Source: an uncultured virus (IMG/VR IMGVR_UViG_3300009164_000061) (Duplodnaviria > Heunggongvirae > Uroviricota > Caudoviricetes). Taken from it: 64,000 nucleotides of DNA. The notes beneath the pieces were generated by a model. That model saw nothing but the letters and a program-made list of their open reading frames with translations, did not search any database and was not told the DNA's origin. The stretch is from IMG/VR virus record IMGVR_UViG_3300009164_000061, positions 1 to 64,000 of that record; one strand, 5' to 3'. The translations under genes were made by a program, and so were the position numbers. Positions 1,655-44,710 of the stretch are shown here, in pieces; position 1 is the first letter of the stretch; each line of letters begins with the position of its first letter.

Positions 1655-4465
1655 ATGTCGATTAAAATTAAAGCGCACACCTCAATTATTGGGGAAACTG
1701 GATACAACTGTCATTCTAGAAATTTCTTTAAAGCCCTAAATTCTCTAGAAGACTTAAGAGTTGATGCCAGAAATTGGACAGTAGGTTCAACCTGGCAAGG
1801 TTATAATAATGATGAACCTCATAATGATGAGTACTATATTGATACTGAATTAAAAACAATCCTAACTCAGCAAACTCTACAGACCCCAAACGGTTCACAG
1901 GAGTTTCCGCTATACCGAAATTATCAAAATCCTGGAGAAACTGATATCCATATCGTCCTAAACGATGTTAATCATAAATATTTTGGTGATAAGTATGATG
2001 GCCCAAAAATTGCCTATAATGTTTGGGAAACTACTAAATATCCGGAAGATTTTTTTAATAAACTAAAAACATTTGATCAGGTTTGGGTTCCAAGCAGCTG
2101 GCAAAAAGAGTGCACCGTTGCTCAAGGTATCAGAGCCGATAAAGTAAAGGTTGTGCCTGAGGGAGTTGATACCCAAATGTTTAAACCCATTTCGCAAGAG
2201 ACCTCATTTCCGGAAGGTCGCCCATTCAAATTTGTGGTAGTTGGGCGTTGGGAATACCGCAAATCTACTAAAGAGATTATAAAAGCATTCATTGATACCT
2301 TTTCCGAAGATGAAAATGTTGAACTTATCTTAAATGTTGAAAATCCATTTGCAAATGATGGCTGTCTAAATACTCAAGAGCGTCTTGTCAAATTTAGCTT
2401 AGTACATAAAGGTATTAAGATACTTAATCATTTAAGCAAAGCAGAATACGTCAACCTATTACAAACTGCTGATGTATTTGTTTCTTGTGCTCGTAGTGAA
2501 GGTTGGAATCTTCCATTAATTGAGGCAATGGCATGCGGCACCCCATCAATCTATTCTGATTGGGGAGCTCAACTTGAATTTGCCGCAGGTAAAGGTTTAC
2601 CGGTAGCAACTCATGGAGAAGTTCCAGCAGGTGTTGCAAATGACGAATCCTGGAATCCAAATGCTCCAGGTAATTTTGTTGAGCCAAACTTCGAAGACCT
2701 TAAACTTAGGCTTAGAGAAGTTTATGATAATTATGAAATTTATAAAAAATCCGCGCTAATGGAATCAAAACAAATCAGAACCCAATTCACTTGGGAAAAT
2801 GCAGCAAAAATCGCACAAGATCACATCCAGGACCTCATTCAACCTGAGATAAATGAATACTCAACTGACTTTGCATGGGTGACCTGCGGTAACCTGGCCT
2901 ATATGCCGATCATTCAGAAATTAGCTGAATCTCTATTGGAATTCTCAAATCGTAAACTTATTGTTTATGGAATTGATTGTGATGTTCCATTTGACTATTT
3001 GCCAAATGTAATTGCCCGAAAATTAACAATTCCTTACTATTCAAACTATGATAAATGGTATTGGAAGCAATATGCGTGTCTTGCAGCATTTAACGAAAGT
3101 TTTGAAAATTTTGTCTGGCTAGACGGTGATATTATTGCAAACCATACAATTGATAAATTAGCAGATCATTTTGCAAATATTGAGAATTATCCATTAGCGG
3201 ATATTCATGTACAAGAAGATTTTATTGGATATTATACAAAACCGGACGGATCAAGAGGCCAGCAGCTATTTAATGAAAATTTATGCAAAGCCAAAGGTGT
3301 TAATCGTCTTGCGACTAAAGCCCATATTTGCATGTACTTATACAATCGAAATTGCGAATGGTGGTTTAATGAAATCTTAAATGTATATAAAGAAACTGAT
3401 CTTGCTGACTATCCAAGTTTACTGCAATGGAATGATGAAGGTATTGATAATTATCTAAGGTGCAAATACAGCTATAATAAGTTCTTACCAATTTCAAATT
3501 TTGATGTTTCTGAATGGGACGGTGATTTACTTGGAACAACTGGCAAAGCAATGGAACACTTTATTTCTTTTTGGAGAGATCAAGGCCCTAAGAATTTTGG
3601 AAAAGTATACGGTTGGCAGTTTATCCCAAAGAATAAAGATCAAATTCTGTACTTTCATGGCAATAAAAATCTAGGCTTTGCTCAAATTATGATTGACCAT
3701 ATTAAAGCTCAAAGAGACCAAAATTTCCATGATACTGAATATTTCTTTGTTGCTAAGGACGAAATTAAAAATTTAGGTTCAATCAAAAAAGTAGAAGGTG
3801 GTACAATGGATATTGCCTATAAATACGGATGGGATTATGCAATTTATCATGAAATTTATAACCTAACTGATTACGAACATCCACACCGCTCAGAAAATCC
3901 AGTTGTTAAAATTCAACCTGGCGATGTTGTTGTTGATCTTGGTGGAAATATTGGAATTTTTACTCGTTATGCATATCATATGGGAGCAAGTAAAATTGTA
4001 ACCTTTGAACCTGACCGTAGATATTTTGAGATCCTAAAACAAAATGCTCCAGCAAATGCAGTCCTATTTAATGCAGCAATTGGAGATCAATTAGGAACCC
4101 TAACCTTAACTGAAAGTTCTCACTTAGGCGGCTCTAACCTATGGCATCAAAAAGATCCAACTCTTACTCAATACGATGTTAATCTATACACATTAGACTA
4201 CATTTTAGATAACGGGCTAATTGACCGAATTGACTTCTTAAAGGTTGATATTGAAGGTTCTGAAATTATTGCACTAAAGGGTATCAGTGATGCTAACTTA
4301 TCTAAGATCCGAAATGTTGCAGTTGAATATCATCATGAGCACCTTAATTTTAATGATGAGCTACGCAATGAATTCATTGGCAGATTTAACCGATTAGGTT
4401 TTAATTCCTACCTATTATTTTGCGGCCCAAACAATGCACTACAATTAATTTATTTTTGGAAATAA
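1655..4465 (+). CDS. Multidomain enzyme: GT4 (GT-B) glycosyltransferase + GT-A-like domain + FkbM-family methyltransferase
   Basis: SEGWNLPLIEAMACG (GT4); VWLDGD (DxD motif); VVDLGGNIG...FEPD...LKVDIEGSE (FkbM). Confidence 0.85.
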   Translation: MSIKIKAHTSIIGETGYNCHSRNFFKALNSLEDLRVDARNWTVGSTWQGYNNDEPHNDEYYIDTELKTILTQQTLQTPNGSQEFPLYRNYQNPGETDIHIVLNDVNHKYFGDKYDGPKIAYNVWETTKYPEDFFNKLKTFDQVWVPSSWQKECTVAQGIRADKVKVVPEGVDTQMFKPISQETSFPEGRPFKFVVVGRWEYRKSTKEIIKAFIDTFSEDENVELILNVENPFANDGCLNTQERLVKFSLVHKGIKILNHLSKAEYVNLLQTADVFVSCARSEGWNLPLIEAMACGTPSIYSDWGAQLEFAAGKGLPVATHGEVPAGVANDESWNPNAPGNFVEPNFEDLKLRLREVYDNYEIYKKSALMESKQIRTQFTWENAAKIAQDHIQDLIQPEINEYSTDFAWVTCGNLAYMPIIQKLAESLLEFSNRKLIVYGIDCDVPFDYLPNVIARKLTIPYYSNYDKWYWKQYACLAAFNESFENFVWLDGDIIANHTIDKLADHFANIENYPLADIHVQEDFIGYYTKPDGSRGQQLFNENLCKAKGVNRLATKAHICMYLYNRNCEWWFNEILNVYKETDLADYPSLLQWNDEGIDNYLRCKYSYNKFLPISNFDVSEWDGDLLGTTGKAMEHFISFWRDQGPKNFGKVYGWQFIPKNKDQILYFHGNKNLGFAQIMIDHIKAQRDQNFHDTEYFFVAKDEIKNLGSIKKVEGGTMDIAYKYGWDYAIYHEIYNLTDYEHPHRSENPVVKIQPGDVVVDLGGNIGIFTRYAYHMGASKIVTFEPDRRYFEILKQNAPANAVLFNAAIGDQLGTLTLTESSHLGGSNLWHQKDPTLTQYDVNLYTLDYILDNGLIDRIDFLKVDIEGSEIIALKGISDANLSKIRNVAVEYHHEHLNFNDELRNEFIGRFNRLGFNSYLLFCGPNNALQLIYFWK

Positions 4466-5813: not shown

Positions 5814-8588
5814 ATGGCACATAAAGAACAGCAAGATTTTTGTAAAAAGATCAAATTAAATTTTCCAAAATACTTCCAAAATAAAAAAGTATTAGATATT
5901 GGATCGCTTGACATTAATGGAAATAACCGTTTTCTATTTGATAATTGTAACTATATTGGATTAGATGTTGGCGATGGTGCTAATGTTGATGTAATAGCCC
6001 CAGGCAATCTATATGATGCGCCATCTGACTATTTTGATGTAATTATTTCAACTGAAGTATTTGAACATGATCTATATTATGAAACTACTATTCAAAATAT
6101 AATTCGTATGTTAAAGCCAGGTGGAATGTTTATTTTTACTTGTGCATCAGGTCAACGTCCTGAACATGGAACTAGAAGACGTGGAGAAATGGATGCTCCT
6201 CTATTAATCCAACAATCAAGCGAATGGGCTGATTATTATAAAAATCTTGAAGCTGACGATTTTTTAAAAATTAATGGATTTGAAACCGCTTTTCCAGATG
6301 GAATATTTGAATACGGTTCATATGGTAGCTATAATCATGAATGGCAAAATCCAGACATGCAAAATATACATTCAGATATTTACTTCTTTGGGGTTAAAGG
6401 TGGAATTGCAAATGATATAAAATATTCAGCGGATAACAGACCTTCAATAATCAGACCGAATGAATATCCGGATGATATTTTTGTTGTTGACACTTGGCCA
6501 AATACTCCAGAAAAAGAATCAGACTTAATTGAATGTATTAAAAAGCTTAGAGAATTTTCAGGAATTCCGATTTTATTAGTTTCACATTATGCAATCAAAC
6601 CTGAAATTCAGAAATTAGTTGACTATTACATATACGATAAAGAAAATCCATTGCTATTAAATTCTGAATTTGGAGAATATGCAGTTGGTAGCGGAAGATG
6701 GTGCACATTTGGAAAAACTAGAGTAGATAATCAAATGGAATATCATCATGATTATGCAATTTGGAGATCAATGACTCATGCATTTAATTTCTGTAAGTAT
6801 CTAGGAAAGAAGATGATTCACTTTATGGAATACGATAATCTGCTTGATACTTTTCAATATCGCCAAGCTTTTTTGGAAAGAGCTCACCAGCATGATGCAG
6901 TAATTTATGAATACCACTCAGGTTCAGCAAAGGATACTCACCTAGCTAAATTTATGGCAACCTTTATTTTCTCAATTAAAACTGAGGTTGCTCTAAATAT
7001 TATAAATGAAGTAAAGACAAAAAAGGAATATTTCATGGGTCGCCCAAACGGTTGGCAGTTAGAAAGAGTATTCCTGCACTATTTAGAAAAACACGCAAAG
7101 GACATTTGGTTAACTAATTATATTGCAAATTCAAATGAATTAAATACTCAAGCCGTTTGGAATAGAGACGGTATCCTAAGAGATGACGCTAAATTTCAAA
7201 TTTATACAGCAGCAGACGATTTTAATAATTTATATGTGCAACTTGTTTCAGGATTTCATGATGAACCTGCAACCAAAGATTACCTACTTGAAATTAAATA
7301 CAATGGAACTGTACAATTTACGACTCTTAAAAAGGGAGACTTTCTACTTATTAAATTAGGCGAATATCGTAAAGGCTATACAGTAACTGTTAATTATTTA
7401 GGTAAATGTGCGTTCACTCAATTCTTAAGCGAGGATTTCCAAACTTTTGCAAAAATGAATCATGTAACAATTGATGGAGTTCAGCCACTGCCTACGGTAA
7501 ATCATAATTTAGTAGACGGTCCATTTGTTGAATTGAAAACTACAAGCCCAATGAAATATCAGGTAGAGTTTATTGATAATGAAACTGACAAATTAGTTTA
7601 TTCAACAAAATTAAGCGGCGGAACTTGGGCAAAAAGCTCAATCAAATATTTTAAAGATTGGAAAATTAAAGTTAAGGACCAAAGTGGAAATCCTGTAATA
7701 ATATTTAATACTGACCTAAAAGGTAAACGTGTCTATATTCCATTAGAGTCAAAAGCACTAGGTGATACCTTAGCATGGTTTCCATATGTTGAAGAATTTA
7801 GAAAGAAGCACGATTGTATTATGATCTGTTCAACTTTTTGGAATCAACTATTTAAAGATACTTATCCGAATATTGAATTCATTGAACCTGGCCAAATGGT
7901 AACTAATTTACATGCAATGTACCGACTTGGTTGGTTCCATAATGGAGATAATATTGACCGTGAAAAAAATCCTAGAGATTTTAAATTAGGTCCATTGCAA
8001 AGAACTGCAACCGATATTTTAGGATTAGACTATAAAGAGATTAAACCTCTAATAAATCACCCAACTGGTCCAGTAGTTAAGAAAAAAGTAGGCCTCGGAA
8101 TTCATAGTACTGCTCAAGCCAAATACTGGAATAATCCAACCGGCTGGCAAGAAGTTACAGATTGGTTAATTGCAAATTGTTATGAACCTGTAATTTTATC
8201 TAGAGAAGAAGATGGTTATATGGGAAATCGTAATCCGGTTGGAGCCTCTAAATTTGAAGCAGGTACAATTGACCGAGTAATTACTGAATTAACTGAATGC
8301 GCTGCTTTTATTGGAATCAGCAGTGGATTGACTTGGTTAGCTTGGGCAACAAATACTCCAAGTATTCAAATTTCCGGTTTTACTGAACCCTATAATGAAC
8401 CAGATGGCGGTATTATTAAATTAGCTGCACCTACTGGAGCTTGTTCAGGTTGCGCAAACCGATTAAGGCTTAATGCTGGTGATTGGAATTGGTGCCCAGA
8501 TCAAAAAGGTACACCTCGTCAATTTGAATGTTCAAAATTAATCACTGCTGATCAGGTAATTGAAAAGTTAAAGACAATTCTAATATAG
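5814..8588 (+). CDS. Methyltransferase fused to an Aah/TibC-like autotransporter O-heptosyltransferase (GT9-like)
   Basis: N-terminal VLDIGSLDING/STEVFEHD; C-terminal SKALGDTLAWFPYVEEF, STAQAKYWNNPTGW, FIGISSGLTWLAW and Cys cluster CSGC...WCP...FECSK. Confidence 0.8.
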   Translation: MAHKEQQDFCKKIKLNFPKYFQNKKVLDIGSLDINGNNRFLFDNCNYIGLDVGDGANVDVIAPGNLYDAPSDYFDVIISTEVFEHDLYYETTIQNIIRMLKPGGMFIFTCASGQRPEHGTRRRGEMDAPLLIQQSSEWADYYKNLEADDFLKINGFETAFPDGIFEYGSYGSYNHEWQNPDMQNIHSDIYFFGVKGGIANDIKYSADNRPSIIRPNEYPDDIFVVDTWPNTPEKESDLIECIKKLREFSGIPILLVSHYAIKPEIQKLVDYYIYDKENPLLLNSEFGEYAVGSGRWCTFGKTRVDNQMEYHHDYAIWRSMTHAFNFCKYLGKKMIHFMEYDNLLDTFQYRQAFLERAHQHDAVIYEYHSGSAKDTHLAKFMATFIFSIKTEVALNIINEVKTKKEYFMGRPNGWQLERVFLHYLEKHAKDIWLTNYIANSNELNTQAVWNRDGILRDDAKFQIYTAADDFNNLYVQLVSGFHDEPATKDYLLEIKYNGTVQFTTLKKGDFLLIKLGEYRKGYTVTVNYLGKCAFTQFLSEDFQTFAKMNHVTIDGVQPLPTVNHNLVDGPFVELKTTSPMKYQVEFIDNETDKLVYSTKLSGGTWAKSSIKYFKDWKIKVKDQSGNPVIIFNTDLKGKRVYIPLESKALGDTLAWFPYVEEFRKKHDCIMICSTFWNQLFKDTYPNIEFIEPGQMVTNLHAMYRLGWFHNGDNIDREKNPRDFKLGPLQRTATDILGLDYKEIKPLINHPTGPVVKKKVGLGIHSTAQAKYWNNPTGWQEVTDWLIANCYEPVILSREEDGYMGNRNPVGASKFEAGTIDRVITELTECAAFIGISSGLTWLAWATNTPSIQISGFTEPYNEPDGGIIKLAAPTGACSGCANRLRLNAGDWNWCPDQKGTPRQFECSKLITADQVIEKLKTILI

Positions 8589-11516: not shown

Positions 11517-11522
11517 GTGGTG

Positions 11523-11886
11523 TGGAGATAGGCGGAATCGAACCGCCGTCCAAAAAACCTCTAATTAAACTTTCATTTACACGCTTAGTCCATTTTTCTA
11601 ATTGGACGAAATATCTTATTCTTTAACGACTTAAAGCTAAAGTCGGTAACGGTTCGACTTGGCCGCTACGCCATGCTGGTTTTGCAACTTTGGTTAGTCA
11701 AGCAGTTGCCGCTTGGTTACTTATGCAGCTAAAAGCTCTTCAGTAACAGGAGTGTTAACGCCTTGGTTAACTAGGCTCCAGAAAGTAGTGTTGCCACTTA
11801 TTGTTTGTAATACATTTTAACGAGTCTTAGCATCATCCTCGGCGTGCAAGCGTAACCGATAATTTCTGTCAAAACCGGTTATCCCC
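11523..11886 (-). ncRNA. ssrA: tmRNA
   Basis: Minus strand begins GGGGATAACCGGTTTTGACAG and ends GGACGGCGGTTCGATTCCGCCTATCTCCA; acceptor stem GGGGATA/TATCTCC has G3:U70; T-arm present; tag ORF 11795..11721 ends in LAA-stop; CCA not encoded after the discriminator. Confidence 0.95.
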
Positions 11887-41458: not shown

Positions 41459-41682
41459 GAGACTGTTTATCCCTAATCAATACTACCCTAACCAAAGATG
41501 GAATTGACCATCAAGTTAAAGACATCAGCGTTAGTTGCCTAAATCATACCTATATTACAGTCCACTGTAGTCAAACTGACTGCCGTGTTAATTATAAATT
41601 CACAGATTTTCAGTCCTTCTTAAACGACAATGGATTCTCATTAAGAGAATCCATTGCTAAAGAATATCAGTTTAAAGATTAG
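41455..41682 (+). CDS. Hypothetical protein
   Basis: 75-aa ORF overlapping the upstream stop. Confidence 0.45.
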   Translation: MRDCLSLINTTLTKDGIDHQVKDISVSCLNHTYITVHCSQTDCRVNYKFTDFQSFLNDNGFSLRESIAKEYQFKD

Positions 41683-42764
41683 ATTCCGTAAATCGTAGAA
41701 ATTGCTGCATAGTTTGCAGTTGCAAGGTTAGGAACGTCACTTATTGCTTGTCCCGCATTCCCGTATTCATAAGCTTTAAATCCATAAACTCGAGTAGTTG
41801 TTGCATGGGTTAGAGCAATAGCAGATTCACATAAACACAAACTTGGAACCGATCTTGAAGCTAAGCCTGAGCCGCTTACCGCTGGCATTCCCATATCTAC
41901 ACCATTTATCCAAAGTTTGGCGTCGTTTGGATCTTCTGCGCCAGCTGGAACATATGCAACCATATGAAATATTCCAGCGTTTTGTAGTGGTGCTAAATTA
42001 CGAAATTCCATATTAGTATTACCGGATTTTACAGTAATTTTTAGGTTGTCCACTATAATTGAAATACTATCGTTTAGCGTGCCTACTAAATAGTGGCCAT
42101 TTAAGTCTCGATCTTGATAGAATACTCCCTCTACTACTAGAGATCCATTGAAGTTATTACCAGTGGCATTTCTAAGATTTGGTGTTTCTAATCTACCGTT
42201 ATTACCGCCTGTCTCAAAATAACCTACGAAACTTCCAGCACTTGGAGCAACAAATGCACCGTCAACTGCTCCAAAATTATTGTTACTAATTAAATCATAA
42301 ACCGCAATATCAGTTCCTGGATAACTTGCTAGGAATCCTAATTCAATATTTGCCGCACATTCAGGAGGTAGTAAATATTCAGGATATTTTGTGTTAACTA
42401 ACATGTATTGATAAGTACCAATTAGCCAGGCAATAGCTGTTGCATAATCTGCAAATAATTCGTAATTATTTGCTGATCTTTCAGGTAAACGACTAATTAG
42501 TTCAGTAATATTTGCTTGAGATTGACCACTAATCCAATGAATTGAAGGTACCGCAGCTGCTTGAGTATCAACTCCGCGGCTATACGTGTCAGTATAGATT
42601 ACCGTGTTTATTCCTGGGTTAATACCTGCCCGCCAGTTGTTGTTTATTAGAGTAGTGTAGTCTTTACGAACTGTACCTAATGAAACTGGGCCGAAACTAA
42701 CGGCATCTCTATTTGGTCGATTTAATCCATTGTAACATACTGGATTGGTGTAGCTTACTGCCAT
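41679..42764 (-). CDS. Hypothetical virion protein, possible LamG/concanavalin-like domain
   Basis: FHMVAYV...AKLWINGV; late motif at 42787-42794. Confidence 0.55.
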   Translation of the reverse strand: MAVSYTNPVCYNGLNRPNRDAVSFGPVSLGTVRKDYTTLINNNWRAGINPGINTVIYTDTYSRGVDTQAAAVPSIHWISGQSQANITELISRLPERSANNYELFADYATAIAWLIGTYQYMLVNTKYPEYLLPPECAANIELGFLASYPGTDIAVYDLISNNNFGAVDGAFVAPSAGSFVGYFETGGNNGRLETPNLRNATGNNFNGSLVVEGVFYQDRDLNGHYLVGTLNDSISIIVDNLKITVKSGNTNMEFRNLAPLQNAGIFHMVAYVPAGAEDPNDAKLWINGVDMGMPAVSGSGLASRSVPSLCLCESAIALTHATTTRVYGFKAYEYGNAGQAISDVPNLATANYAAISTIYGI

Positions 42765-42879
42765 AATGTATAAAAATTATTTTAGGTTATTTATTTGGCT
42801 ACTTTTAAAATTTTTTCAAAAACTTTTTGGCCAGACTAGATATAATAAATAGACTTTACAATAATCGTTCTTTAATTTA

Positions 42880-43295
42880 CGTTGGAAAAACCTAGTAGGA
42901 AGTCATGATCCTGTTAGGAGTATGTGCCAGAACAACCTGATTGTAAAACAGGTAATGGTTTAGATTAGGAGGATGCTCCGCAAGGGCTGGATGAAACCAG
43001 CAGATCAAACGATCAACTTGAACCAGTTAACCACTGGAATCTAAGGTTTTGATATACATATTCGGTATTTTGCAATCGGCATACGGGTATAAAATAGTCC
43101 CGTTAAATGGCTGAATAATCCTTTGCTAGGTGGGATAAAGCACTCGTACTGTTGTGGTTAACACGATAGTGATTCAAGCGGATCCAACTTGCTTTGAGTC
43201 GACTCTGACAGGAGTGTACGAAGGTTGTCGTTATAACGCAAGCTCAGCATCAAATTGGAGGTAAACCCTACCCCTCTCATACGTTTTTTCCGACG
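42880..43295 (+). ncRNA. Unidentified large structured non-coding RNA (~415 nt)
   Basis: No listed ORF; terminal helix cgttggaaaaa/tttttccgacg; many nested helices; TATAAT and boxA-like motif upstream; terminator downstream. Confidence 0.75.
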
Positions 43296-43300
43296 ATACC

Positions 43301-43333
43301 AAGGCTAGCCGTAAAAAAGCTAGCCTTTTTTTT
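43301..43333 (+). terminator. Intrinsic terminator closing the ncRNA unit
   Basis: aaggctagc-cgtaaaaaa-gctagcctt followed by a T tract. Confidence 0.88.
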
Positions 43334-43358
43334 GTTTACAGAGTATAATAATATTACT

Positions 43359-43583
43359 ATGGGATTTAACAAATATTTTGTACCTGAACCAGCCGAAGTT
43401 GCTAGACAGGTAAAATTAAACGGGCCGACTCAATTTATTAATCGTAAAATTGATGCAGTAATTGGCAATTCAACCAGTATAGATATGATGGATCATATTT
43501 ACGAAAAGTCAAAAACTGGCCAGACTGACAATCAAATCTTGAAAAGTCTAGTCGAAAAATTTCCGGTATATTTTAATGCCTAG
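43359..43583 (+). CDS. Hypothetical protein (MGFNKYF...)
   Basis: ATG at 43359 after GAGTATAAT. Confidence 0.6.
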   Translation: MGFNKYFVPEPAEVARQVKLNGPTQFINRKIDAVIGNSTSIDMMDHIYEKSKTGQTDNQILKSLVEKFPVYFNA

Positions 43584-43866
43584 TCCAGCCAGAGCAAAAG
43601 AAGTCTGCTTAATAACAGCTGTCACTGGAGAAGCCCAAACTCATCTATGCGTTATTGGTACGTTTAGGGGAGCCTATAAAATTGCACTGTTTGAAGCTGC
43701 AATTTCTTTTCCAAATTTAACAGAACGCGCTGCCCAGACCCTAATGAATCAAACTGGCTCAGTTAAACTTTGGGATACCAAAAAGTTTGCATATGAAGAA
43801 GAGGCCAGGTGGTCGCCAATTGGAAAGATAATTTCAGTCTGTAAAGTTCCAGTAAAACATACATAA
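43576..43866 (+). CDS. Hypothetical protein
   Basis: 96-aa ORF ending at a bidirectional terminator. Confidence 0.5.
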   Translation: MPSPARAKEVCLITAVTGEAQTHLCVIGTFRGAYKIALFEAAISFPNLTERAAQTLMNQTGSVKLWDTKKFAYEEEARWSPIGKIISVCKVPVKHT

Positions 43867-43893
43867 AAAAAGAGAGCAATTGCTCTCTTTTTT
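43865..43893. terminator. Bidirectional intrinsic terminator
   Basis: aaaaaagagagc-aatt-gctctctttttt between convergent genes. Confidence 0.85.
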
Positions 43894-43909
43894 ATTTAAG
43901 TAAGTTAGG

Positions 43910-44107
43910 TTATTCGATTAGGCCTAGAATCTTTGATTCTTGAACCGCTTCTAATTGACATGGGGAAATTCCTTCACCAAATCTTTTTAATAATTTTTCT
44001 TCGGCTTCTCCAATTGAAGTTGCTTCAACCAAGTACTGTTCACGAATTTTTTTCGTTTTGCCGTTGTCGTCTTCCGACTCAAATCTTAATTTTGCTAGAT
44101 AATACAT
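43910..44107 (-). CDS. DUF4494-like protein (Bacteroidota family)
   Basis: NGKTKKIREQYLVEATSIGEAE. Confidence 0.7.
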   Translation of the reverse strand: MYYLAKLRFESEDDNGKTKKIREQYLVEATSIGEAEEKLLKRFGEGISPCQLEAVQESKILGLIE

Positions 44108-44143
44108 ATTGCTTTTAAATTTATGTTATGTTATACTAGTAAA

Positions 44144-44710
44144 TTATCGAGTAGTTTTACGAGGGTTTAAAGATTGAGGCATTTTACCAGTTTCCATATT
44201 AGTATCTTTTTTAGAACCATTTAACACTCCATTGTCTGGAATATTATTTGTCTTTGCAAATACCTTTTTCTTATTCATAGACTCTTCAGTTTTCTGTGCA
44301 GATTTTAAAGCACCTGGAGCTGGATAACCTTTTTCTCCTGGCTTTGCAGGTTTTTCTCCACGCTTTCTTTTTGCATTAATATTATCCCATAAACCTTTTT
44401 TCTTTTCGGAAATTTCTAGGCTTGCTAATAGTGCATCAGACTCGTCTGCAAAACTTTGAGCAATATCTTCTCCAAATTCGTCATAAATTTTTGTAATAAG
44501 ATCATTTTGTAAATCTTTAATTCGGCTTGCCGTTTCATACTTATTGGAGTGTTGATCAATTTCAACTGGCTCATTTGTATAGTTACTAGCTAATTCAATT
44601 AGATCTTTTGAAATATTATGGTAAAAAGAATCCGATTTTGTATTTGGTGCTTGGTGGAATTCATCGTAACTCTCTTCAAAGCTTTCAAATAGTGCAATGT
44701 AATTTTTCAT
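44144..44710 (-). CDS. Putative internal virion protein
   Basis: MKNYIALFESFEE tag; ISE followed by KKKGLWDNINAKRKRGEKPAKPG module. Confidence 0.6.
   Translation of the reverse strand: MKNYIALFESFEESYDEFHQAPNTKSDSFYHNISKDLIELASNYTNEPVEIDQHSNKYETASRIKDLQNDLITKIYDEFGEDIAQSFADESDALLASLEISEKKKGLWDNINAKRKRGEKPAKPGEKGYPAPGALKSAQKTEESMNKKKVFAKTNNIPDNGVLNGSKKDTNMETGKMPQSLNPRKTTR

Follow-up and report, generated by a model that had tools for sequence, protein, structure and literature searches.

A Non-coding RNA Gene of Freshwater Phages with Two Probable manA-type Cores

What occupies the gap at 42765-43331 of a 64,000-nucleotide (nt) stretch of DNA from an uncultured virus (IMG/VR record IMGVR_UViG_3300009164_000061)? 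In this stretch, hereafter the window, the gap is bordered by a 361-amino acid (aa) open reading frame (ORF) at 41679-42764 (- strand) and by a 74-aa ORF, orf74, at 43359-43583 (+ strand). An initial annotation of the window had remarked that no ORF is listed in the gap, and this is correct for ORFs of at least 60 aa; only mechanical ORFs of 31-40 aa can be drawn. The same annotation read the gap as an unidentified, highly structured RNA of a novel class. The analysis described here shows a real, highly structured non-coding RNA gene of 416 nt (42880-43295, + strand), which very probably holds two cores of the manA type (Rfam family RF01745) inside one closing helix. The manA family itself is already known; what is new is a double-core variant with a gene of its own.

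Matches to the manA Family

The initial annotation had proposed a search of Rfam with Infernal, and this search removes the novelty of the class: it returns two significant manA matches in tandem, both below the family's gathering score. The region was matched with E-value thresholds (E up to 10), beyond the gathering thresholds. Core 1 is matched at 42893-43113 with 45.9 bits (E 3.9e-12) in a genome-wide search and at 42906-43108 with 44.5 bits (E 4.2e-10) in a regional search with alignment; core 2 is matched at 43082-43285 with 34.9 bits (E 7.4e-9 to 9.1e-8). Both alignments lie on the + strand and are full-length, covering model positions 1-192 of 192, and a manA search of 14 control genomes gave a match in none of them.

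Other families are silent. Models of RNase P, tRNA, transfer-messenger RNA (tmRNA), signal recognition particle (SRP) RNA, 6S RNA, ROOL, and GOLLD have no match in 42700-43450 at E up to 10, and no ribozyme family matches the region at that threshold. The initial annotation had likewise found no resemblance to tRNA, tmRNA, SRP, or 6S RNA; the faint echo of RNase P and the very divergent ribozyme that it also entertained have no counterpart in these searches, and nothing in the analysis favors a ribozyme.

The internal-loop signature provides a second line of evidence. Core 2 carries it exactly (GC-UGAAUAA...UAAA-GC, where the model has aC-UGAAUAA ... UAAg-Gu around the P2 hairpin), and core 1 has a variant, CAGAACAA/UAAUG in place of CUGAAUAA/UAAAG. 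The exact core-2 signature pulls out 24 metagenome loci, in which the intervening hairpin covaries. Twenty of these were given to Rfam and ARAGORN (L037, L045, L049, and L050 were omitted as apparent duplicates), and half of the 20 score as manA. A scan with the core-1 pattern yielded 18 loci, six of which are chance matches in coding DNA.

The main architectural features of manA are present: each core has a four-way junction with three hairpins and two further hairpins, with compensatory pairs in M, Ha, Hb, Hc, M', Hb', Hc', and He'; hairpin Hd' is unsupported and outer Hd is weak. The helix P1 departs from the family pattern. The P1 columns of the manA model are deleted in core 1 and cut to 3 nt in core 2, and neither core has a P1 of its own closing after its terminal hairpin; instead, a single P1 (42920-24/43278-82) spans both cores. 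The RNA also does not occupy a 5'-untranslated region (UTR), the position that goes with the Rfam type "Cis-reg."

Relatives were found via neighboring proteins, a 19-mer of the RNA, and two core-signature patterns. The element occurs on 12 viral contigs that represent six sequence types, all with one layout: the window itself, L017 (95.0% identity to the window), L013 (94.2%), L046 with its cut copies L071 and L065 (91.5%), L059 (86.8%), and the most distant, L093 (68.6% over 398 nt). In two records of 252,618 and 253,137 bp (93-94% complete), the tandem pair is the sole manA match at E ≤ 0.01. The scores in these two ~253-kb genomes are 50.5 and 44.9 bits (44.9 for core 2 of the genome G006) and 50.1 and 40.2 bits. 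The distant 87-kb record of L093 has a tandem pair at 52.2 and 37.2 bits, and a further pair is present in a 128-kb record. The two-core layout is thus a conserved one, with a single copy in each genome.

The RNA is conserved much more strongly than the genes around it. In the relatives G006 and G007 the RNA is 86.8-91.5% identical to that of the window, whereas the protein-level identity is 54-57% for orf74 and 31-35% for the neighboring orf75up. Similarly, core 2 and the terminator (43064-43340) do not differ at all (100% identity) among three lineages whose neighboring 361-aa proteins are 58-66% identical. When the RNA and a marine manA-like RNA were compared by blastn with 50,697 phage records, neither had a match. 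Eight distant loci that bear orf74 (L018-L025) have no manA match, nor do the records behind L018, L019, L022, and L024, four fragments that are 4-11% complete and hence carry little weight.

Fold and Covariation

The structure (Table 1) was built from the model alignments, the minimum-energy fold, and the helices of the initial annotation, and sequence changes were counted on MAFFT alignments. It comprises 22 helices with 119 pairs, and 96.9% of cells are paired across the six types. Both sides have changed in 33 of the 119 pairs (50 cells), and 14 of the 22 helices contain at least one compensatory pair. The covariation score is 0.289 versus 0.142 in shuffles, none of 500 shuffles reaches any of five measures, and slid controls have 37-44% of cells paired and 2-7 pairs changed on both sides. 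The four closest types alone show 6 such pairs; with L059 added, the count is 14 of 113. The helices backed by covariation coincide with those of the manA model. Folding energy agrees: the + strand of 42866-43335 folds at -138.5 kcal/mol (z -3.33), which 0 of 100 shuffles equal, and the - strand has a z of -2.16, equaled by 4 of 100.

Table 1. Parts of the double-core RNA and its flanking signals in the window
Feature	Position	Strand	Remarks
Promoter-like region	42841-42865	+	TATAAT 42841-46; TACAAT/AATAAT 42857-65
Conserved 5' leader motif	42866-42879	+	(A/C)GUUCUU(U/A)AA, kept in 6/6 types
Closing stem S0	42880-42890 / 43285-43295	+	11 bp; minimum-energy fold, pair probabilities 0.5-1.0
Hairpin H0	42891-42918	+	9-bp stem 42891-99/42910-18; 10-nt loop AAGUCAUGA(G/U)
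P1, 5' strand	42920-42924	+	GUAUG, pairs with CAUAC; encloses both cores
manA-type core 1	42927-43103	+	RF01745 match; compensatory changes in M, Ha, Hb, Hb1, Hb2, Hc
Core 1, parts			Internal loop CC-AGAACAA...UAAU-GG and hairpin P2; junction M 42960-66/43038-44; Ha, Hb (Hb1, Hb2), Hc
Core 1, end	43083-87/43099-103	+	Hairpin Hd, then terminal hairpin He (position given)
Linker between cores	43104-43109	+	UAAAUG; AUG could pair alternatively with CAU 43278-80
manA-type core 2	43110-43277	+	RF01745 match; compensatory changes in P2', M', Hb', Hc', He'
Core 2, parts			GC-UGAAUAA...UAAA-GC and hairpin P2'; junction M' 43144-49/43216-21; Ha', Hb', Hc'
Core 2, end	43257-61/43273-77	+	Region Hd' 43226-40, then terminal hairpin He' (position given)
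P1, 3' strand	43278-43282	+	CAUAC
Intrinsic terminator	43301-43333	+	Stem 43301-09/43319-27, 9-nt loop, T8

The pairing of the two ends, recognized already in the initial annotation, is real. It is made by the closing stem S0, in which 98.4% of cells are paired and 4 of 11 pairs differ on both sides. In L093 the stem reads CGUUCGGUAGA/UCUACUGAGCG, with 11 of 11 positions paired. Hairpin H0 follows, in the position of the 5' hairpin that precedes P1 in manA. Its stem is rewritten in every lineage, with 7 of 9 pairs compensatory, and its loop is invariant in all six types except for the last base. This local hairpin displaces a long-range helix proposed earlier (42891-900/43119-30), which was rejected since covariation backs 42891-99 pairing with 42910-18. 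P1 is paired in 6 of 6 types; L093 changes A-U to G.U and U-A to C-G. The element is thus in the canonical manA order of 5' hairpin, P1, core, and P1, with a duplicated core and an extra closing stem.

Many other helices of the initial annotation hold, and most of these show compensatory changes. They are acctg/caggt, acggg/cccgt, and tagatt/aatcta, the last enclosing gctgg/ccagc, gatc/gatc, and ccagt/actgg; in core 2, tcgtac/gtacga encloses tgttgtg/cacgata, gattcaa/ttgagtc, and actc/gagt. Another, tgtgcc/ggcata, conflicts with the manA-model pairing and never varies among the types.

Candidate tertiary contacts fared unevenly. The proposed pseudoknot GGUGGG/CCUACC was rejected: it loses one pair in L046 and L059 and four of six in L093, where a shorter UAGG/CCUA pairing is likewise broken. 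On the other hand, 6 of 6 types keep a helix of 6 bp that joins the core-1 P2 loop to the Hd internal loop (42941-46/43070-75), with changes of U.G to C-G and of U-A to U.G; this pairing could be a pseudoknot or an intermolecular contact. A split L5/L7 pairing, GUGGUU 43154-59 with AACCAC 43029-34, keeps four core pairs in all six types; its GUG is shared with the 7-bp Ha' stem, which is backed by three one-sided changes in L093.

Three further candidates concern P1 and the loops. A core-1 P1 of AGUAUGUG/UACAUAUU, seen in the minimum-energy fold, was rejected, since L093 has a partnerless AGUGCGUG and an inner hairpin instead. A local 3-bp P1' (43107-09/43278-80) is possible and is replaced in the structure by the long-range P1. 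A palindromic GGAUCC loop was dismissed as a self-kissing site because it is not kept in L093; two 6-nt palindromes in ~66 loop windows are near the chance expectation of ~1. MAFFT with RNAalifold on mixed manA-like RNAs recovered the P2 region alone.

Promoter, Leader, and Terminator

The TATAAT noted in the initial annotation is present at 42841. In the promoter-like region a promoter scanner reports a weak site, TAGATA-17-AATAAT (9/12). In L046 and L093, TATAAT/TATATT lies 10 nt before the conserved GTTC, a spacing different from that in the window lineage. TATAATAWT was considered as a promoter motif common to the phage and rejected, as it is not enriched in the window (12 found versus 6.8 expected; 6 of 100 shuffles reach 12).

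The leader is far better conserved. GTTCTT is invariant in 6 of 6 types, L093 at 68.6% identity included. Of the boxA-like element that the initial annotation placed at 42866, the sequence stands (CGTTCTTTAA at 42866-75); the motif at 42866-42879 may resemble boxA.

The strong terminator described earlier is likewise confirmed, with a hairpin probability of 0.76-1.0 and a 5' arm that pairs with its own 3' arm only, according to the partition function, a thermodynamic prediction. Its 9-nt loop caused it to be missed by a consensus scanner. The terminator is kept as GGUUAGC/GCUAACC in L046 and L059; in L093 another hairpin takes its place and leads into T7.

Presence in RNA Libraries

An index search with words sampled from 42700-43500 listed 24 metatranscriptome runs (21 studies), which contain 0.26-0.41 of those words. 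Their habitats are lake, freshwater, estuary, and, in one case, marine. The contigs of 4 of the 24 runs, from four studies, were aligned to 42000-44200. All seven contig pieces, with contributions from 4 of 4 runs and contig depths of 3.6-25.9, lie inside 42918-43305, and the remaining 24 of 30 bins of 42000-44200, both flanking genes included, have no cover. One contig ends at 43291 and continues into adapter-like letters, which we take to be Illumina adapter; a contig from another study ends at 43292. A mature 3' end near 43291-92 is therefore probable, and the contig ends, like the bare flanks, are weak hints. Taken together, the conserved leader, the RNA's own terminator, and contigs confined to the RNA bear out the earlier view of a structured RNA transcribed as its own unit.

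The contigs also reveal variation, including one L046-type H0 and one 14-nt deletion type. In record 7 of run X9 (window 43065-43103), the core-1 hairpin He is continued by a core 2 of another kind, beginning CUUGUGGCUGAAUAAUUUUC. As this core 2 is L093-like, the contig represents a seventh double-core sequence type in RNA libraries.

Genomic Neighborhood and Carrier Phage

The RNA precedes orf74 on the same strand in five of the six sequence types. In G006 and G007 it immediately adjoins both orf75up and orf74; the 361-aa ORF is absent at this site and is therefore a later, lineage-specific insertion between orf75up and the RNA. For the same reason a single 1.64-kb cassette of ORF and RNA was rejected. 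The 361-aa ORF has no Pfam or PHROGs match; Atlas structure matches to LamG/ConA-like jellyroll proteins (TM 0.5-0.6) offer a lead that its product is probably of the LamG-like jellyroll type. In L018, a relative with 78-82% DNA identity, orf75up stands beside orf74 with no RNA between them. In L093 the RNA, with its own terminator, sits among unrelated genes, and the next same-strand ORF of at least 60 aa starts ~480 nt downstream.

A TATAAT precedes the start of orf74 by ~10 nt, and no Shine-Dalgarno sequence is evident (window 43344-43361; L018:2985-3003). This arrangement is kept in L018 and L046, and the orf74 mRNA may be leaderless or have an unusually short leader.

Some other manA-like RNAs lie near tRNA genes. 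Same-strand tRNA genes detected by ARAGORN lie within ~500 nt in 5 of the 20 core-2-signature loci. Single-core manA-like RNAs are found in or beside same-strand, phage-type tRNA arrays in L057 (266-875, - strand), L040, L044, L055, and L058. In L057 such an RNA (337-501) exactly fills the gap between tRNA-Arg (266-337) and tRNA-Pro (505-576), and in L058 a tmRNA-like fragment (50.9 bits) lies between tRNA-Thr and the manA-like RNA. A crude survey of ORFs and terminators at 19 other manA-like loci was too noisy to separate leaders from stand-alone RNAs.

Ten of the 20 core-2-signature loci (L036, L038, L040, L041, L043, L047, L051, L052, L053, and L054) have the exact GCUGAAUAAUCC...GGGAUAAAGC signature and a covarying hairpin but do not match manA at E ≤ 0.1, and may represent additional divergent classes of manA-like RNA. 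The L054 site is spanned by a long opposite-strand ORF and so may be a chance match.

The virus record is 78,376 bp long, with a CheckV completeness of 29%, and the window covers its first 64 kb. Phage genes in the window include a T4-type large terminase, a baseplate wedge protein, DNA ligase, ThyA, UvdE, and Fpg. The terminase is 29-37% identical to its nearest matches, which are from huge uncultured phages, Sphingomonas phage PAU, and Tenacibaculum jumbo phages, not cyanomyoviruses. The only gathering-level Rfam match in the window is a full-length tmRNA gene at 11520-11886 (- strand; RF00023, 113.7 bits), for which ARAGORN gives the tag peptide GNTTFWSLVNQGVNTPVTEELLAA. Two proteins of more than 900 aa are encoded on the + strand. 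The first (1655-4465) combines glycosyltransferase and FkbM-type methyltransferase domains. In the second (5814-8588), Pfam finds only SAM-methyltransferase domains, in the first ~120 residues; a PHROGs match covers residues 1-169, and the remainder is without a match.

Possible Modes of Action

How might such an RNA work? We lean toward a stand-alone phage gene for a double-core manA RNA of ~416 nt that serves as a self-assembling structural RNA. The parts of this reading differ in strength. That the RNA stands alone and acts in trans is likely: it is very conserved and appears in contigs that lack the flanking genes, which argues for a trans-acting structural RNA over a leader. Self-assembly as its mode of action is a tentative proposal made by analogy. 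Single-core manA RNAs are reported to form octamers, decamers, and a 60-mer T=1 cage built from pentamers in vitro, with loop-loop contacts L5-L7', L8-L9', L3-L8', and L6-P6' in pentamer assemblies (10.64898/2026.07.01.735769, July 2026).

Transcription would start in the promoter-like region and end at the terminator, with trimming back to the closing stem S0. The product would then act in trans as a structural RNA rather than as a 5'-UTR switch. Its invariant loops could serve RNA-RNA contacts; these are the H0 loop AAGUCAUGAG, which holds the self-complementary UCAUGA, and GAUG, UAACC, and GACA. Each molecule would be a covalently linked two-core protomer of a higher-order assembly. Any mapping of these loops to the L3-L9 numbering of the preprint is a guess.

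A speculative extension, which we consider doubtful, makes the double-core RNA a natural linked two-subunit protomer of an RNA-only shell or ring in cells infected by giant freshwater phages. The cores would have specialized after duplication, core 1 keeping the UAACCA loop and core 2 the GUGGU element. Single-core manA has both of them in one molecule, where, on a tentative reading of the preprint's numbering, they would form the L5-L7' contact, and in the double-core RNA the invariant self-complementary H0 loop would link protomers. If true, the RNA would be the first hetero-domain subunit of an RNA cage, and manA assemblies would be biological rather than test-tube objects.

Several points weigh against the reading of a stand-alone, self-assembling double-core manA RNA. 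Both manA scores of the window lie under the Rfam gathering score of 55.2 bits, so that neither half is annotated automatically, and the best relative reaches 52.2 bits. (Marine single-core loci with the exact core signature are likewise under the cut-off, at 53.1, 52.7, and 47.8 bits.) Covariation was counted over only six related types, with most of it contributed by L093, and kinship alone can beat column shuffles. The outer Hd stem of core 1 is weakly supported, and Hd' of core 2 is not kept in L093, leaving that region unsupported. For the promoter there are candidate sites only, and L018, which lacks the RNA, indicates that it is dispensable in that lineage. The aligned runs are a small share of those listed and consist of assembled contigs, from which strand, expression level, and true ends cannot be read; DNA can also be present in an RNA library, and a stretch that co-occurring strains have in common might assemble more readily than the sequence on either side. 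Finally, the assemblies of the preprint were made in vitro from single-core RNAs, in contrast to the double-core RNA described here (10.64898/2026.07.01.735769).

The alternative that survives best is a double-core RNA that stands alone and acts in trans as a monomer, binding a protein or small ligand as a sponge, decoy, or sensor without assembly. The evidence on identity, covariation, and expression fits it equally, and an invariant H0 loop on a freely covarying stem resembles a loop for protein or RNA recognition. Moreover, Weinberg et al. rated manA a riboswitch candidate, that is, a ligand binder (PMC2864571), and the part of the preprint that was available leaves the in vivo relevance of the cages unaddressed (10.64898/2026.07.01.735769). 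However, no partner is known, near-total nucleotide conservation over 340 nt, stems too, goes beyond the need of one binding loop, and self-assembly is the only experimental property known for the manA family. We therefore regard a monomer as rather unlikely.

Less probable still is a cis-acting tandem riboswitch, in which two aptamers and a terminator platform would control read-through into orf74; such an arrangement would recall the glycine riboswitch. The position of the RNA upstream of orf74 in most types, with the terminator in between, is what this explanation would require, and manA was put forward as a candidate cis-regulatory riboswitch of 5' UTRs (PMC2864571). However, the terminator is apart from the fold, with a probability of ~1 and no alternative partner, and no antiterminator is evident. 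The partition function likewise yields no mutually exclusive aptamer and terminator folds. A riboswitch is also unlikely because L018 keeps orf74 without the RNA, L093 has the RNA without orf74 and among unrelated flanks, and other manA-like RNAs adjoin, or lie between, tRNA genes. No RNA-library contig bridges the RNA and orf74, a weak argument as these are contigs only.

That the RNA belongs to an unrelated, new class of large RNAs or is a divergent ribozyme, with the manA matches due to chance or convergence, is hardly credible: sub-gathering scores, the inexact signature of core 1, and the lack of a P1 in either core speak for it, but they are set against two independent full-length matches on one strand (E 4e-12 and 7e-9) that the control genomes do not reproduce, relatives whose scores climb to 52.2 and 44.9 bits, a core-2 signature that retrieves manA loci, helices shared with the manA model, and the silence of every ribozyme family.

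Comparison with Known Systems

The manA motif has been known since 2010 (PMC2864571) and is routinely annotated in cyanophages (PMC9964418). It has remained an orphan motif, filed as a possible riboswitch; here it appears as an independent, strongly conserved gene of ~253-kb jumbo phages. A literature search found no description of fused or tandem manA, and the available portion of the preprint mentions neither tandem forms nor tRNA context nor in vivo data (10.64898/2026.07.01.735769). The fused two-core form provides a defined object for the study of RNA assemblies in infected cells and of contacts reshaped by duplication. It also shows that the Rfam cut-off misses divergent and fused manA forms.

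The likeness to RF01745 extends over most of the molecule. In both, a 5' hairpin precedes P1, and a 2-bp clamp surrounds an A-rich internal loop ((C)UGAAUAA / UAAAG). A P2 hairpin, a four-way junction with three hairpins, and an AGG joiner are likewise common to them, as are one more hairpin and a terminal hairpin whose loop is of the GGUA...CC type, and both are carried by phages. Unlike manA, the RNA described here places two cores in one P1 and adds an 11-bp closing stem around the 5' hairpin; its scores are sub-gathering and core 1 has the variant signature. Its location outside a 5' UTR, with its own terminator, and its carrier, a freshwater virus of ~253 kb whose terminase is not nearest to that of a T4-like cyanophage, are further differences.

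Tandem riboswitches are a second point of comparison. The glycine riboswitch has tandem aptamers with one expression platform, and the transcript of the double-core RNA similarly contains two homologous folded domains ahead of a single terminator. In contrast to the glycine type, the terminator does not compete with the fold, L018 keeps the downstream gene without the RNA, and no ligand is known.

A further comparison is with ROOL, GOLLD, raiA, and OLE-type RNA-only multimers. The double-core RNA has no Rfam match to them at E up to 10, is smaller at 416 nt, and uses the manA core as its building block. Like them, it is a large, ornate, highly conserved, phage-borne non-coding RNA (10.1101/2024.12.08.627333), and its family is reported to form symmetric RNA-only assemblies. 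The initial annotation's comparison with ROOL and GOLLD was therefore apt, as manA RNAs are reported as RNA-only decamers and a 60-mer cage (10.64898/2026.07.01.735769).

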